Source: a virus
Taxonomy: Duplodnaviria; Heunggongvirae; Uroviricota; Caudoviricetes
Virus record (IMG/VR): IMGVR_UViG_3300013004_000034
Strand: one strand, 5' to 3'
Length of the DNA stretch: 64,000 nt
In this document: piece by piece, positions 2,199 through 6,903 of the stretch
Numbering within the stretch: the stretch's first letter is position 1
How the letters are laid out: each line of letters starts with the position of its first letter
Made by a program: the position numbers and the translations under genes
The notes under the pieces: model-generated
What the model was told of the DNA's origin: nothing
Database searches by the model: none
The model's input: only the letters and a program-made list of their open reading frames with translations

Positions 2199-3635
2199 TT
2201 AGGCATAGCGCTCATGCATGATAGTCTTCATCATAACACCCGTTGGAGTCATATCTTCCATGTCTCCTGAGAGCACGGACTTCAAGATCGAAGGGCTAAA
2301 GCCGGAGACCAAAGCAACTCCACGCTCATTGAACTTCACCGGCACATTGCTAGCTGCCATGATGTTCCAGAACACAATATTCGGAACAGTATAGCCAGCA
2401 GTTTCGTACTTACGGCGAATCATCTGCATTGCAGTATCATCAAAGCGAGTGCACTGGTCAAACTGCATGTCAGACATGATCAGCAGAGTAGCAGGCATCT
2501 CGGACTGAGGTACATCACCCTTGATTGCAACGTCAAGAATCTTCTCAAACGCAGCATGAAGATTGGTATTCATCTCCCACTTCGAAGTTACCATCTGCTG
2601 CACCTTCTGCAGGATATCACCCTTCAGATGCAAAAGCTGAGGGGAAGAAGAGAAGGTCAGGAATGTATCCTTGAACTTGCCCTTGTTCTTATCAGCACAG
2701 TACAGACCAAGGCTGACAGCTACGTCCATTGCGGTAGTCTTACCACCTGCAACACCAGCACCCATTGAGCCAGAGACGTCAACAAGAGCCAACACGTTAG
2801 CATCACCAACGTAGTTAGGCAGAGCATCCCACTGAGCCTTAACGACATCAAGTTCAGTCTTGTTATAGTCTGAACGCCAAGCGTAGTTGCTGACACCCTT
2901 CAGGACGTCATACGGATAAACTGCACCAGCGTTAACCTTTACAGTCTTGTCGCCCTTGACCAGCTTATCAACCCACTCCTTATACTTCGGAGTGTGGCGG
3001 TTGAAGGCCTTCTTATAACGGCTAGCCGCTACAGACGGAACATGAGAGAAGTTGATCTCATCCCAGTTCTTGGCACACATCTGAGTCTCAACAACCTTAG
3101 ATGCAGTGACAAGGGTCTTGCGGTACTGCTTAGGGCTCATGCCGAGCTTATTGCGCAGCTTGACAGCCATAGCACCCTTACGCGGGGTCCACTTGGCACA
3201 CAGACCATCATTGGCCATCAGTGCACGGCCGATCTTGGATGCAACAACATTCTGAATGTCTTCATCTACATCGTCCTCAAGCAGAACCAGAAGGTCATCC
3301 CAACGGCCGAGCTCAGGAGTCTTGTCAATGAGTCGAGTCAGCTCATGACCCATCAGATTCTTTGCTGCATGACGAAGAACCTTACGGTAGATCTCACGCT
3401 CACCTGCACCATTGCGGGCATCACGAGCCCAGAGTGCAATACGAGTGGCAATCTCGGCATCCTCAACAAATGCCGCCGTAAACGCAGGAATAGGATCCTG
3501 TCCACGCAGAGCGCCAATCTTGAAGAAGAGGTCTACGCATGCAGACGCGGTAGAAGCACGAGCCTTCATACCATTCTGAGTTCTGGAATCTTGGTTGATA
3601 ACGGCATTTACGAACGTATTCATCATAATCTCCAT
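2199..3635 (-). CDS. Ro60/TROVE-family protein with a C-terminal vWA (MIDAS) domain, Rsr-like
   Basis: The C-terminal ~190 aa align motif-by-motif to the Ro60 vWA domain: VDVSGSM/DVSASM, TFLTFSSSP, IMSDMQF/FTDNETF, GVALVSGFSPSILKSV/GMLDMCGFDTGALDVI. The N-terminus is alpha-helical and TROVE-like. The real start may be the internal Met at 3623. Confidence 0.65.
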   Translation of the reverse strand: MEIMMNTFVNAVINQDSRTQNGMKARASTASACVDLFFKIGALRGQDPIPAFTAAFVEDAEIATRIALWARDARNGAGEREIYRKVLRHAAKNLMGHELTRLIDKTPELGRWDDLLVLLEDDVDEDIQNVVASKIGRALMANDGLCAKWTPRKGAMAVKLRNKLGMSPKQYRKTLVTASKVVETQMCAKNWDEINFSHVPSVAASRYKKAFNRHTPKYKEWVDKLVKGDKTVKVNAGAVYPYDVLKGVSNYAWRSDYNKTELDVVKAQWDALPNYVGDANVLALVDVSGSMGAGVAGGKTTAMDVAVSLGLYCADKNKGKFKDTFLTFSSSPQLLHLKGDILQKVQQMVTSKWEMNTNLHAAFEKILDVAIKGDVPQSEMPATLLIMSDMQFDQCTRFDDTAMQMIRRKYETAGYTVPNIVFWNIMAASNVPVKFNERGVALVSGFSPSILKSVLSGDMEDMTPTGVMMKTIMHERYA

Positions 3636-3743
3636 AATGTTTAACAGGTTGGACTTGGTTGCTATATCAAAGCTTTAGATGCTGAACCCAACCTAGGGTT
3701 ATAACAGGATCGTTTTTTGCCCCCTCGGGCAGCTGCCAGGTCT

Positions 3744-3775
3744 TGGTTGGCAATGTTGGAGTCGAACCAACTAAA
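3744..3775 (-). ncRNA. isolated T-arm plus acceptor 3' strand plus CCA element (tRNA-like fragment)
   Basis: The reverse complement reads GTTGG-TTCGACT-CCAAC ATTGCCA A CCA. No matching 5' acceptor or canonical anticodon arm lies upstream. Confidence 0.3.
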
Positions 3776-3945
3776 AGGTTTTGCTGAACCGATCCTAGAA
3801 CTAATAAAGTAACAGAGTGGCTCCTACTTCTTTTTTAGCCTTGAGAAATCGAAGAACAAGGTTGTTGGTTTTGCCGAAGCTCCCCAACTGTTCTGGATGC
3901 GCTTGTAGGCGCGACGGTGTTGCTGTAACCACTCTAATATTAGAC

Positions 3946-4037
3946 AGGAAGCCTATAGTGCGGATTTGAACCGCTCCTATCGCGTTGAAGGCGATTGCTC
4001 TACCATTGAGTTAGATATGGTTTGCTGCAAGCTTCCT
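3946..4037 (-). ncRNA. tRNA-like cloverleaf module inside an extended terminal stem; candidate Y-RNA-like or pseudo-tRNA with an opal-reading UCA loop
   Basis: Contains D arm ACTC-AATGGTA-GAGC, a perfect anticodon-type arm ATCGC-CTTCAAC-GCGAT (anticodon UCA) and T arm GCGG-TTCAAAT-CCGC. There is no canonical acceptor stem. Instead a 7-bp terminal stem AGGAAGC/GCTTCCT encloses the module. Confidence 0.35.
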
Positions 4038-4159
4038 AAAACTTGTCGGGATCGTTTTGGTCCGCTAAGACTTACAGGGTTTAGCGTTTTTTGTTTGCTG
4101 AACCGATCCTAATAGTCGGGAATGAGGCTTAGTGAGTGTCTCATTCAATTTATAGGTTG

Positions 4160-4188
4160 ACTATATATCAAATTCCTTGATTTGTCAA
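4160..4188 (-). promoter_or_regulatory. sigma70-type promoter inside the ncRNA region
   Basis: Minus strand reads TTGACA, a 17-nt spacer, then TATAGT. Confidence 0.5.
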
Positions 4189-4237
4189 CCCACTTTTTAC
4201 ATCTGGAGCAGCTTTTTATGGTATAAAGCGCAAAAAT

Positions 4238-4313
4238 TGGTACCCGCTACGGGACTCGAACCCGTCCTGTAAAGATTTTAAGTCTTTTGCCTCTGCCGGT
4301 GGGCTAAGCGGGC
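4238..4313 (-). tRNA. tRNA with anticodon UAA (Leu-reading) but type-I architecture (5-nt variable loop)
   Basis: Acceptor GCCCGCT/AGCGGGT, anticodon arm AAAGA-CTTAAAA-TCTTT, T arm ACGGG-TTCGAGT-CCCGT, discriminator A, CCA encoded. Confidence 0.5.
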
Positions 4314-4314
4314 T

Positions 4315-4391
4315 TGGTAGTCACGGTCGGATTCGAACCGACACTTAACAGATTTTGAATCTGCCGCCTCTGCCAGTTGGGCTACGCGACC
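4315..4391 (-). tRNA. tRNA with anticodon CAA (Leu-reading), type-I architecture; paralog of 4238..4313
   Basis: Acceptor GGTCGCG/CGTGACT with two GU pairs, anticodon arm GCAGA-TTCAAAA-TCTGT, T arm GTCGG-TTCGAAT-CCGAC, discriminator A, CCA encoded. It shares the D-arm sequence GCCC..GGCAGAGG with its neighbour. Confidence 0.45.
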
Positions 4392-4399
4392 ATATTTCC

Positions 4400-4873
4400 T
4401 TATAGAGTATTTATATCATATATGTAGTTGTCTGTCAACTCATTTTCGCAAAAAAGTTTGGCACCGTTAGTAAGATGGAACTTACGAGCCATGGCAGTCT
4501 TAGGGCTGAGAGTACAGGCTACTTTAGTATACGGTCTTGTTGCTTTGATGTGCCGCAGTGTCTTGTTTAAGACTTCGCGTCCAGCTCCTGAAACATTGCT
4601 CCAGACCGTGTAAAAGCATGCTACATTTTGACGCGAGACGTCTACAAAGAGATCATCTTCAATTGTAGGAATATCATCTAGATAAGCAACGCATGTAACT
4701 GCACGCACAAAATAATTTTCGCTGAGCAAAAAGTACTCACGATTATGAGCCACTCTTTGCCATGCTGGGATATGAGGTCTGACAGGATCACCTATCAAAC
4801 ACCCTTCCCAGCAAGATCTAAAGTCACGTACTACAGTCAGTTGATGCATTGGCGGTTTCCGTTCTAAACACAT
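4400..4873 (-). CDS. hypothetical protein (weak GNAT-like pattern)
   Basis: 157-aa ORF. The pattern VSGAGREV ... ARKFHLTNGAKL is loosely acetyltransferase-like. Confidence 0.3.
   Translation of the reverse strand: MCLERKPPMHQLTVVRDFRSCWEGCLIGDPVRPHIPAWQRVAHNREYFLLSENYFVRAVTCVAYLDDIPTIEDDLFVDVSRQNVACFYTVWSNVSGAGREVLNKTLRHIKATRPYTKVACTLSPKTAMARKFHLTNGAKLFCENELTDNYIYDINTL
4410..4438 (-). promoter_or_regulatory. sigma70-type promoter driving the tRNA/ncRNA/Ro60 transcription unit
   Basis: Minus strand reads TTGACA-17-TATAAA, about 20 nt upstream of the first tRNA. Confidence 0.5.
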
Positions 4874-5123
4874 TCTCTGATGTATCTATCGGTTCTCCAC
4901 CAAAGAACTTAATGACTATACGAAGTGCACTGGCATAATTCTCATAATGAGTAATAGTGTCGATGTGATGCTGTGCATCCTCACAGCTCTTATCCATTAC
5001 AGCAATGGACTCAAATTCTAGAACTGACGTACAGGCATCGAGTGCTGCCTGACAATGCTTGACTACAATTTCGTCAAGTTGCTCATCATCTACCTTTACG
5101 TAGAGGTTTCCATTAATTTCCAT
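4824..5123 (-). CDS. hypothetical protein
   Basis: 99-aa ORF in the operon context. Confidence 0.3.
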   Translation of the reverse strand: MEINGNLYVKVDDEQLDEIVVKHCQAALDACTSVLEFESIAVMDKSCEDAQHHIDTITHYENYASALRIVIKFFGGEPIDTSENVFRTETANASTDCST

Positions 5124-5336: not shown

Positions 5337-6368
5337 TCACTCCTCGTTCTTCAGTAGCCAGCGATTACTAATAATCTTGAAGCTAGTGTCATTAGCCATA
5401 TTCTTGTACACCATTCCTTCGCGAGGCGGCTTCTTACCAATTAGAGACTGGCCATCGGCCGATGCAATTAGTGCATTAACGTCAGAAGTGCCAGTCGTTC
5501 CGGTAGCAAGCACAGGAACATGATTGAAGGCAAAGGCCTTGCAAAACTTACGGCGCTCATCGGGAGTCAGGTAGCAAGACTTGTTGATATCCCAGACATC
5601 AAAGACAAAGAAGTCGGTGGCATCAAGACCATACTTATTGCCCTGAATACCAGGGCCAATCAGCTCGCCCTGCAGAGCAAAACCTGCAGGAAGGCGCTGG
5701 TCGATATCTTCACGACGAACAGCCTGCCAGAATGCATTGCCTTCGGTCTCTTCCAGATCATAGTTACGAGAGCAGACACCGGTCACATCATTGTGCCGAT
5801 AAACCGTCATCGAAGAGCCATCAAGCTTCTCGGTAACTTCCCACCGAGCGCCTTCCTCTTCCCAACGACGGATGTCCTTAGTAAGATTCTGAACGCGTTC
5901 CTGATCAGTCTTGCGCAGGAAGCTAGGGAAATTACCCTTGACTACACCGGCAAGAGAACCATGAATGGGCTTTTCGTACTTCTGAATCTGAAGATACTCG
6001 GTCAGATCATCACCCTCTACAAGATAGTCAATATCACAAATGTACGAGTTGGAATCCCGTTCATCAAATGTGGCTACAGCAGACACCGGGAGCAGAAGTC
6101 CCTGGCTGATCTGCTTACAAAGCTTAATTGTTCGCAGACGTTCACCCTCAACTCCGTTGTACGTACGGCCACGGTTCAGGAAAGGCGCAATAGCCTTTGG
6201 AATCCAAGAGTCAATCTCAAAGTACACAGCCAGATCACCGACCTGGAAGTCGCCCTTCTTGACTACAACCTTCCATCCGTCAACCGTAGCTACGTCAATA
6301 GCATCAGCATCAGGGATGGGCTGAATGTCCGCAACGCGACGGACGGTAGCAAGCTTACGATCAGACAT
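5337..6368 (-). CDS. ATP-dependent RNA ligase-like nucleotidyltransferase with an N-terminal OB / tRNA-binding-like domain
   Basis: Covalent nucleotidyltransferase motifs are present: I TEKLDGSS, IV EGMVYK, V FKIISNRWLLK. The N-terminus (ADIQPIPDADAIDVATVDGWKVVVKKGDFQVGDLAVYFE) resembles a Trbp111/EMAP-type tRNA-binding fold. A promoter lies at 6394..6422. Confidence 0.55.
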   Translation of the reverse strand: MSDRKLATVRRVADIQPIPDADAIDVATVDGWKVVVKKGDFQVGDLAVYFEIDSWIPKAIAPFLNRGRTYNGVEGERLRTIKLCKQISQGLLLPVSAVATFDERDSNSYICDIDYLVEGDDLTEYLQIQKYEKPIHGSLAGVVKGNFPSFLRKTDQERVQNLTKDIRRWEEEGARWEVTEKLDGSSMTVYRHNDVTGVCSRNYDLEETEGNAFWQAVRREDIDQRLPAGFALQGELIGPGIQGNKYGLDATDFFVFDVWDINKSCYLTPDERRKFCKAFAFNHVPVLATGTTGTSDVNALIASADGQSLIGKKPPREGMVYKNMANDTSFKIISNRWLLKNEE

Positions 6369-6468: not shown

Positions 6469-6903
6469 TTACCTGACAGCCCGCGGTTGCATCTGCTGCT
6501 GGATCTGCTGAGTCTGCTGCTGGATCCAAGTTTGAAGAAGATTAATGGACGGATCAACTACATCCTGTACACGCTGGTGAGTCATGACTCGTTCGCCAAT
6601 TTCAGAAGCGGCAATTAGCAGCACGGTCTGACGGTTTGGAATTAGTGAAGTGGTAATACCTACAATTGTCATAGCAGCAAAAAATGCACATGAAAGCTTA
6701 AATGCCGCTACCTTTCGCTTTCGCCGAAGTGTTAGAATCGGTTCACTGAGTGGCCTAAAATCAGGCTGTTCATCCATATGGACAAAAGCAACAATAACAG
6801 CACCAATTGTTGCAATAGCAAAGAGAATCGTTATAAAAACCAGAAAGCCTGAAAGACTTTCTGCAACATTAGCGGCATAAATCAGCCAAGAAAGCGAATT
6901 CAT
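6469..6903 (-). CDS. small membrane protein (possible NfeD-like partner of the SPFH protein)
   Basis: Hydrophobic N-terminal helices (LVFITILFAIATIGAVIVAFV), and it lies immediately downstream of the SPFH gene. Confidence 0.35.
   Translation of the reverse strand: MNSLSWLIYAANVAESLSGFLVFITILFAIATIGAVIVAFVHMDEQPDFRPLSEPILTLRRKRKVAAFKLSCAFFAAMTIVGITTSLIPNRQTVLLIAASEIGERVMTHQRVQDVVDPSINLLQTWIQQQTQQIQQQMQPRAVR

Follow-up and report, generated by a model that had tools for sequence, protein, structure and literature searches.

Two leucine tRNA genes lie side by side on the minus strand of the 64,000-nt stretch of viral DNA analyzed here (hereafter the window), tRNA-Leu(CAA) at 4315–4391 and tRNA-Leu(UAA) at 4238–4313. 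On that strand, the CAA gene comes first and the UAA gene second, with a spacer of 1 nt between them. Both were identified as type I tRNAs by ARAGORN, by the Rfam tRNA family (RF00005), and by alignment to E. coli tRNALeu. The first-pass annotation had read two adjacent tRNAs with leucine anticodons (UAA and CAA) and a type I architecture with 5-nt variable loops from the letters alone, and this reading is borne out by ARAGORN, Rfam, and the cloverleaves. ARAGORN, which had been named as a check, calls Leu(taa) and Leu(caa) at these positions, and Rfam places both genes in the same register, with a complete cloverleaf, a 7-nt anticodon loop, and a leucine anticodon. The RF00005 model is covered over its full length by both genes, at 57.4 bits (E = 9e-10) for Leu(CAA) and 52.1 bits (E = 2.6e-8) for Leu(UAA) in the 64-kb window, where the gathering score is 29. 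These scores and E values indicate matches far above chance.

The cloverleaves contain all of the parts that had been listed for them, namely acceptor stems with G-U pairs, T arms, A73, an encoded CCA, and the anticodon loops CUUAAAA and UUCAAAA. The acceptor stems are 7 bp long and include G1-U72 in both genes (GGUCGCG/CGUGACU in Leu(CAA) and GCCCGCU/AGCGGGU in Leu(UAA)). The anticodon loop is UUCAAAA in Leu(CAA) and CUUAAAA in Leu(UAA), and the variable loops of 5 nt each are UAAGU and ACAGG, respectively. The T arms are canonical, with T loops UUCGAAU in Leu(CAA) and UUCGAGU in Leu(UAA), and A73 is followed by the encoded CCA in both. The two genes have a common D arm, UAGCCC(A)AC(U/C)GGCAGAGGC. 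In Leu(CAA), the D stem is GCC/GGC plus a C13-A22 mismatch and the D loop reads A14 A15 C U G18 G19 C A20a G; the D arm of Leu(UAA) is the same minus one base. The Levitt pair is A15:U48 in Leu(CAA) and C15:G48 in Leu(UAA), the latter in the register assigned here, in which the D loop is one base shorter. All stems in both genes consist of Watson-Crick or G-U pairs, save for the 13:22 mismatch that occurs family-wide. Aligned with each other over 76 positions, they show 68% identity. Each has nearer relatives in other phages (82–88% identity in blastn), which argues for long-term maintenance of both genes.

The window is part of the genome of a T4-like myovirus, with genes for a gp23-type major head protein, a portal, a sheath, an SbcCD-like nuclease, and a helicase. 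For the capsid protein, identity is 71% with Stenotrophomonas phage DLP6 and 63–65% with T4-like phages of Sinorhizobium, Methylophilales, Pelagibacter, and cyanobacteria. The phages with related capsids infect various Gram-negative bacteria, and the host of this metagenome-derived phage (a JGI contig) is probably Gram-negative. Among GenBank phages, no DNA-level relatives were found for the flanks of the tRNA genes, and the RNA ligase gene nearby gave only short matches to other RNA ligase genes. The GC content ranges from 0.39 to 0.48 along the window, and 67 non-overlapping open reading frames (ORFs) occupy 89% of it under code 11, with TAA, TGA, and TAG all in use as stops.

ARAGORN finds 11 tRNA genes in the window, every one on the minus strand. 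The leucine pair is flanked by another tRNA cluster (862–2182) and by an RNA ligase gene (5337–6368, minus strand), the product of which matches PF09414 and an N-terminal PHA02142 OB domain. A gene for a 478-aa protein with DUF2828 and DUF7788 domains (2199–3635, minus strand) lies between the two tRNA clusters. No polynucleotide kinase-phosphatase was recognized among the small ORFs near the ligase gene (4400–4873, 4824–5123, and 6469–6903). The position of the RNA ligase gene beside the leucine tRNA genes may reflect a tRNA-repair context; in Streptomyces phage Comrade, polynucleotide kinase and RNA ligase genes adjoin the tRNA genes. A sigma-70-like promoter candidate (TTGACA-17 nt-TATAAA; 4438–4410, minus strand) was read from the sequence and ends about 18 nt upstream of Leu(CAA). 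It is missing from the consensus scan because the scan demands T as the last base of the second hexamer, which here is A. A terminator scan of 3600–4900 found no terminator-like site, including between the tRNA genes and their neighbors.

Two further tRNA-like features are found on the minus strand. The sequence at 3951–4020 has a UCA anticodon in the loop CUUCAAC, which would read UGA, and is labeled “SeC” by ARAGORN. Only four of its seven acceptor pairs form, its T stem has 4 bp, and Rfam matches only model positions 8–63, at 35.6 bits. Its body is similar to those of phage tRNA-Thr genes, and a promoter-like TTGACA-17-TATAGT lies upstream of it at 4188–4160. Despite the presence of this sequence, UGA is the stop codon of 16 of the 67 ORFs in the window. 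Decay of a tRNA gene could account for it, as could a role as a weak opal suppressor. At 79–151, Rfam alone reads a tRNA-Gly(UCC) at 30.7 bits, which ARAGORN misses. The acceptor stem of this sequence is GCGGGUG/CACCCGC, followed by U73 and CCA; its T loop (AGCGUUA, without UUC) is non-canonical and its D arm is odd.

For the isotype of the two leucine tRNA genes, we aligned both with E. coli leuZ (UAA) and leuV (CAG) from MG1655. Every column is matched except for one clean gap of 10 nt at the variable arm, where the 87-nt type II E. coli tRNAs have a stem-loop of 15 nt and the window tRNAs have 5 nt instead. Neither gene has the long variable arm (a stem-loop of more than 10 nt) of a canonical type II tRNALeu. 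The D arm has the same length and pattern in all four tRNAs, including a 3-bp D stem and the 13:22 mismatch, and the same holds for A14, G18G19, A20a, A22, A73, and the layout of the T arm and anticodon stem-loop. The alignment also lists A15 as common to all four, although Leu(UAA) itself reads C15:G48. G1-U72 occurs in leuZ as well, and acceptor pairs 1–5 are identical in leuZ and the window Leu(UAA). The first-pass annotation was therefore right that the two genes have one D arm in common, and wrong to call this arm unusual, as its architecture and length are those of E. coli tRNALeu. The type I tRNALeu body is a bacterial-style tRNALeu with a loop of 5 nt in place of the long variable arm. 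In mitochondrial tRNAs, the D and T loops are reduced and AT-rich, and the LeuRS is a dedicated one; the window tRNAs have full canonical D and T loops, unlike animal mitochondrial tRNALeu. The latter is also of type I, its variable loop being short, with A73 and A14 as identity elements (PMC9976931), and these features recur in the window tRNAs.

The identity elements of E. coli LeuRS are A73, the A15-U48 Levitt pair, G18G19, and A20a; activity with this enzyme persists in variants of tRNALeu without the long arm (PMC9976931). All of these elements are present in Leu(CAA), and all but A15:U48 in Leu(UAA). Whole-sequence identity was considered as an isotype test and rejected, since the window leucine tRNAs are 57–73% identical to almost any tRNA and the measure does not discriminate. 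Because overall identity fails to separate isotypes, the isotype argument rests on the D-arm architecture and on the association between the D-arm motif and the anticodon.

This association was examined by scanning IMG/VR for the motif TAGCCCA-N2-4-GGYAGAGGC, which is present in both window genes, blind to the anticodon, and then running ARAGORN on the matches. The viral set comprises 121 tRNAs, i.e., the IMG/VR matches listed, the two window tRNAs, and three from GenBank phage records. A cellular set was obtained from the matches listed in the same motif scan of one genome per GTDB species. Among the matches listed, 118 of the 121 viral tRNAs have leucine anticodons (UAA 58, UAG 31, CAA 22, GAG 4, AAG 2, and CAG 1) and the other three have unreadable loops; all are 72–78 nt long. 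The cellular matches listed have leucine anticodons without exception (106/106), with lengths of 74–78 nt. Combined, 224 of the 227 motif-bearing tRNAs among the matches listed have leucine anticodons, all six of which are represented, and no readable non-leucine anticodon occurs. A body that goes with both leucine codon boxes and with no other readable anticodon is a leucine body.

Other parts of the body are also conserved in the viral set. Among the matches listed, A73 is found in 120 of the 121 tRNAs, A15:U48 in 104 (86%), and a variable loop of 5 nt, the mode, in 107, and CCA is encoded in 54. The window Leu(UAA) is the sole case of C15:G48 among these 121, and its anticodon loop CUUAAAA is the commonest one (46/121 among the matches listed). 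RNAalifold applied to 60 diverse members returned the type I cloverleaf; of its 21 pairs, 16 show compensatory changes.

G1-U72 was considered as a hallmark of phage tRNALeu, given that it occurs in all short tRNALeu of the first five phages, and was rejected. It is found in only 50% of the motif family among the matches listed, and it is not special to leucine: in the same contigs, again among the matches listed, it is equally common in tRNAs of other isotypes, namely Glu (65%), Val (44%), Ile (39%), Lys (31%), and Arg (28%), and it is also present in E. coli leuZ. In the ARAGORN table of viral contigs, its frequency in phage tRNALeu overall is 44%, and it is absent from phage tRNAs for Thr, Ser, Pro, Phe, Ala, Asn, and Asp, both among the matches listed. 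This distribution could be due to AT mutation pressure that is tolerated in some isotypes only.

The motif–anticodon association bears directly on the possibility that the two tRNAs have a non-leucine identity, such that another synthetase charges the body and UUA/UUG are read as another amino acid, or that they act as suppressors. The type I shape is unusual for a bacterial tRNALeu, A73 is common to several isotypes, overall identity to tRNAs of other isotypes is of a similar level, and one type I tRNALeu was not charged by E. coli LeuRS in vitro (PMC6614811). Against this, the motif family holds no readable anticodon other than those for leucine, and G3:U70 is absent from both window tRNAs, which excludes an alanine identity. 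Moreover, relatives are leucylated in vitro (PMC6614811) and reportedly insert leucine in vivo (PMC13596443). Suppression or recoding, which the first-pass annotation had listed among the possible roles, is contradicted: CAA and UAA are sense anticodons (for UUG and UUA) on a leucine-specific body, neither of them pairs with a stop codon, and standard-code ORFs that make use of all three stops cover 89% of the window. We consider a non-leucine or recoding function highly improbable.

The two genes have many relatives. The blastn search retrieved 328 GenBank phage records for Leu(CAA) and 17 for Leu(UAA), and the relatives are nearly all annotated as tRNA-Leu and align without a variable-arm gap. 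They include Felix O1-like coliphages, phages of Salmonella, Streptomyces, Gordonia, Mycobacterium, Enterococcus, Lactobacillus, Xanthomonas, and Pseudomonas, and T4-like cyanophages. The tandem layout also recurs. In Bacillus phage P59, Leu(UAG) and Leu(UAA) are separated by 1 nt, as are the genes in the window, and short leucine tRNAs are paired in tandem at 12 other viral loci among the matches listed, two of which have CAA ahead of UAA. The statement in the first-pass annotation that leucine tRNAs normally carry a long variable arm is correct for most bacterial tRNALeu; the rarity that it implied is not, in light of these phage records and of the native type I genes in Actinobacteria. In a blastn search of 5,426 E. 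coli genomes, Leu(CAA) had no match at E ≤ 10, a result that excludes only a close copy, as weak hits are invisible at that database size.

The phage tRNALeu genes from OSYSP, Si3, P59, cyanophage P-RSM6, and Comrade resemble those in the window in having 74–79 nt, a short variable loop, and A73, and also in the frequent G1-U72, the Leu-type D loop, the often encoded CCA, and the tandem arrangement of two leucine tRNAs. These named phage tRNAs are 75–88% identical to the window genes, and none of the phages is a close relative of the window phage. Some of them differ in the D arm. The T5-like copies have D stems AUC/GGU or AUG/CAU in place of the GCC/GGC of the window genes, and the UAA copy of the Felix O1-like phage Si3 has UCCC...GAGA where the window has GCCC...GAGG. 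The whole genome of the T5-like phage OSYSP (MF402939.1) contains just two tRNALeu genes, both of type I and 77 nt long. Reportedly, an OSYSP-derived tRNALeu carrying CGA, a serine anticodon, reads TCG as leucine in E. coli (PMC13596443). Such decoding indicates that the OSYSP subtype is leucylated by E. coli LeuRS in vivo, independently of the anticodon.

In the Salmonella phage Si3 genome (KY626162.1), a 78-nt Leu(UAG) gene at 3081–3158, with a short variable loop, G1-U72, and A73, is labeled “tRNA-pseudo/tRNA-OTHER” in GenBank. Annotation pipelines apparently mistake some type I tRNALeu genes for pseudogenes. Such labels might also be taken at face value, in which case the window genes could be decaying or non-functional remnants of tRNALeu genes left after deletion of the variable arm, and the degenerate tRNA-like sequences at 3951–4020 and 79–151 of the same window would fit that picture. 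However, every stem of the two leucine tRNAs is intact, the T loops are canonical, and CCA is encoded. The architecture persists in very distant phages and shows abundant compensatory changes, and the two genes, at 68% identity to each other, each have closer relatives elsewhere. Decay is therefore a very unlikely explanation, and the two genes are better regarded as functional leucine tRNAs.

Class II tRNAs with other specificities in the same phage contigs have kept their long arms. Among the matches listed, tRNASer genes are 83–95 nt and tRNATyr genes 80–93 nt long, with one short exception each, and the leucine tRNAs that lack the motif divide into 33 short and 30 long ones. The seryl- and tyrosyl-tRNA synthetases need the long arm. 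The long arm thus seems to have been lost specifically in leucine tRNAs, only where it is dispensable; tRNALeu is the one class II tRNA whose bacterial synthetase needs no long arm.

In cellular genomes, the motif-bearing tRNAs found in the GTDB scan are mostly lone genes in Actinomycetota chromosomes among the matches listed, with examples in CP015604.1, Mycobacterium sp., and Nocardia mikamii; one lies in a streamlined genome of 1.46 Mb. Over all phyla sampled, 60 of the 106 motif-bearing cellular genes among the matches listed have the UAA anticodon. Type I tRNALeu therefore seems to be far wider in Actinobacteria than the published case of Streptomyces tRNALeu(CAA).

That case provides the biochemistry of the type. 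Almost all bacterial tRNALeu are of type II, and S. coelicolor has one type I tRNALeu(CAA) among its five isoacceptors (Fan et al. 2019, NAR 47:6369; PMC6614811). This tRNA is leucylated in vitro by S. coelicolor LeuRS (ScoLeuRS) and by human mitochondrial LeuRS, and its knockout was not obtained; the variable loop's 5-nt length and U8:A14 matter, and A73 is needed by E. coli LeuRS (EcLeuRS) but not by ScoLeuRS (PMC6614811). In vitro, EcLeuRS at 1 nM failed to charge the Streptomyces type I tRNALeu(CAA), as did one other Streptomyces LeuRS, and ScoLeuRS did not charge human mt-tRNALeu(UUR) (PMC6614811). In view of the failure of EcLeuRS, charging of the window D-arm subtype by a Gram-negative LeuRS is not guaranteed; the OSYSP-derived tRNALeu is a counter-example from a related tRNA. 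The Streptomyces tRNA has G15:C48, and its C48A mutant is fully active (PMC6614811), which suggests that A15:U48 may not be strictly required.

The S. coelicolor tRNALeu(CAA) and the window genes are alike in their leucine anticodons and in variable loops of 5 nt with the pattern xCAGx or xAAGx. The variable loop of the former, xCAGC (C45 A46 G47 C48), is also that of the Streptomyces loci in the motif scan. The Streptomyces chromosomal tRNALeu(CAA) and the window genes further have the D-arm motif UAGCCCA..GGYAGAGGC, U8:A14, G18G19, and A73 in common. They differ in the Levitt pair, which is G15:C48 in S. coelicolor and A15:U48 in the window Leu(CAA), and in the first acceptor pair, which is G1-C72 at the Streptomyces loci in the motif scan and G1-U72 in the window. 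The S. coelicolor gene, which coexists with ordinary tRNAs, is chromosomal and belongs to a high-GC Gram-positive host whose LeuRS has been shown to accept type I, whereas the window copies are carried by a T4-like phage. Type I tRNALeu is thus an already known kind of tRNA, biochemically characterized in Streptomyces and widespread in phage genomes, the annotations of which pass over it without remark. A search of the accessible literature turned up only this Streptomyces paper (PMC6614811) and no description of type I tRNALeu as a phage feature.

Type I tRNALeu is common in phages that infect hosts with type II tRNALeu only, such as the T5-like and Felix O1-like coliphages, which raises the question of whether the short loop serves in defense evasion. 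It could hide phage tRNALeu from toxins and nucleases, of the host or of a competitor, by which class II tRNALeu is recognized or cleaved, or soak such enzymes up as a decoy, so that translation continues while host tRNALeu is destroyed. Cleavage of tRNALeu has been reported for the Gifsy-1 terminase (PMC11610961), and a Retron-Kva2 HEPN nuclease is reported to cut tRNALeu after U33. Phage tRNAs have also been proposed to evolve nuclease resistance (PMC13596443). The adjacency of the RNA ligase gene (5337–6368), like that of the kinase and ligase genes of Comrade, would be in keeping with this reading. However, we know of no defense system that recognizes tRNALeu through its long arm. In addition, the Leu(UAA) loop is the commonest form in the family among the matches listed, so it bears no signature of loop escape. 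Streptomyces has this architecture natively, where it is apparently essential (PMC6614811), and it is widespread in Actinobacteria; being native there, it is not a phage counter-defense in those hosts. Simple loss of a dispensable arm, with retention of the arms in the Ser and Tyr tRNAs, explains the pattern. Whereas the suppressor reading is contradicted, the first-pass suggestion of a decoy for an anticodon nuclease is unsupported. Evasion or decoy activity is unlikely on this evidence, and it is similarly doubtful that a type I tRNALeu lineage circulates among phages of unrelated hosts with arm loss being adaptive rather than neutral. If it were so, phage tRNALeu could escape effectors of the host or of rival phages that recognize class II tRNAs, and a phage could tell its own tRNALeu from that of the host during destruction of the host pool. 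For hosts with a LeuRS that is reported to reject type I, as with E. coli LeuRS and the Streptomyces tRNA, it would further imply that phage tRNAs have evolved subtype-specific compatibility or have an unknown helper.

The reading that we favor is that the products of the two genes are probably functional leucine isoacceptors belonging to the type I tRNALeu family, which would be charged by the host LeuRS and decode UUA/UUG during infection. For charging in the host of this phage, it draws on the biochemistry of relatives, the leucylation of which was demonstrated by others; from the present analysis, it draws on the genes and their fold, the leucine-type body, the large covarying family, and the tandem layout. 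A dicistronic Leu(CAA)-Leu(UAA) precursor would be transcribed from the sigma-70-like promoter candidate at 4438–4410, cleaved by RNase P, and trimmed until it ends in the encoded CCA. Both tRNAs would then receive leucine from the host LeuRS via A73 and the D/T-loop core (U8:A14, A15:U48, G18G19, and A20a); neither the anticodon nor the long arm is read by bacterial LeuRS. During infection, Leu(CAA) would decode UUG and Leu(UAA) would decode UUA and UUG, which would add decoding capacity for about a quarter of the leucine codons of the phage.

Besides the failure of EcLeuRS on the Streptomyces tRNA, two observations qualify this reading. First, UUA and UUG are not the preferred leucine codons of the phage. 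In the window ORFs, UUA accounts for 11% and UUG for 16% of leucine codons, together 27%, and CUU is the commonest at 29%. Second, C15:G48 in Leu(UAA) departs from the A15:U48 of the family. The first-pass annotation had proposed that the tRNAs supplement UUA/UUG decoding in an AT-rich phage. The premise holds only in part, as the phage is moderately AT-rich and UUA/UUG do not dominate, but supplementation still appears to be the most plausible role.

Taken together, these findings indicate that the two genes in the window can be annotated as ordinary functional tRNA-Leu(CAA) and tRNA-Leu(UAA); they are not to be labeled as pseudogenes or suppressors, nor do they form a new class. Phages of Gram-negative, Gram-positive, cyanobacterial, and actinobacterial hosts commonly carry short-armed leucine tRNAs, which also occur as single chromosomal genes in many Actinomycetota; in the tRNASer and tRNATyr of the phages concerned, the long arm is retained. 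Such tRNAs are a large exception to the textbook assignment of bacterial tRNALeu to class II, and we did not find this exception described in the searchable literature. The prevalence of arm-less tRNALeu in phages is the part that apparently had not been described and is worth a note. It is relevant to tRNA annotation, in which some pipelines call such genes pseudogenes, to substrate recognition by LeuRS, and to the use of phage tRNALeu scaffolds in genetic-code engineering.
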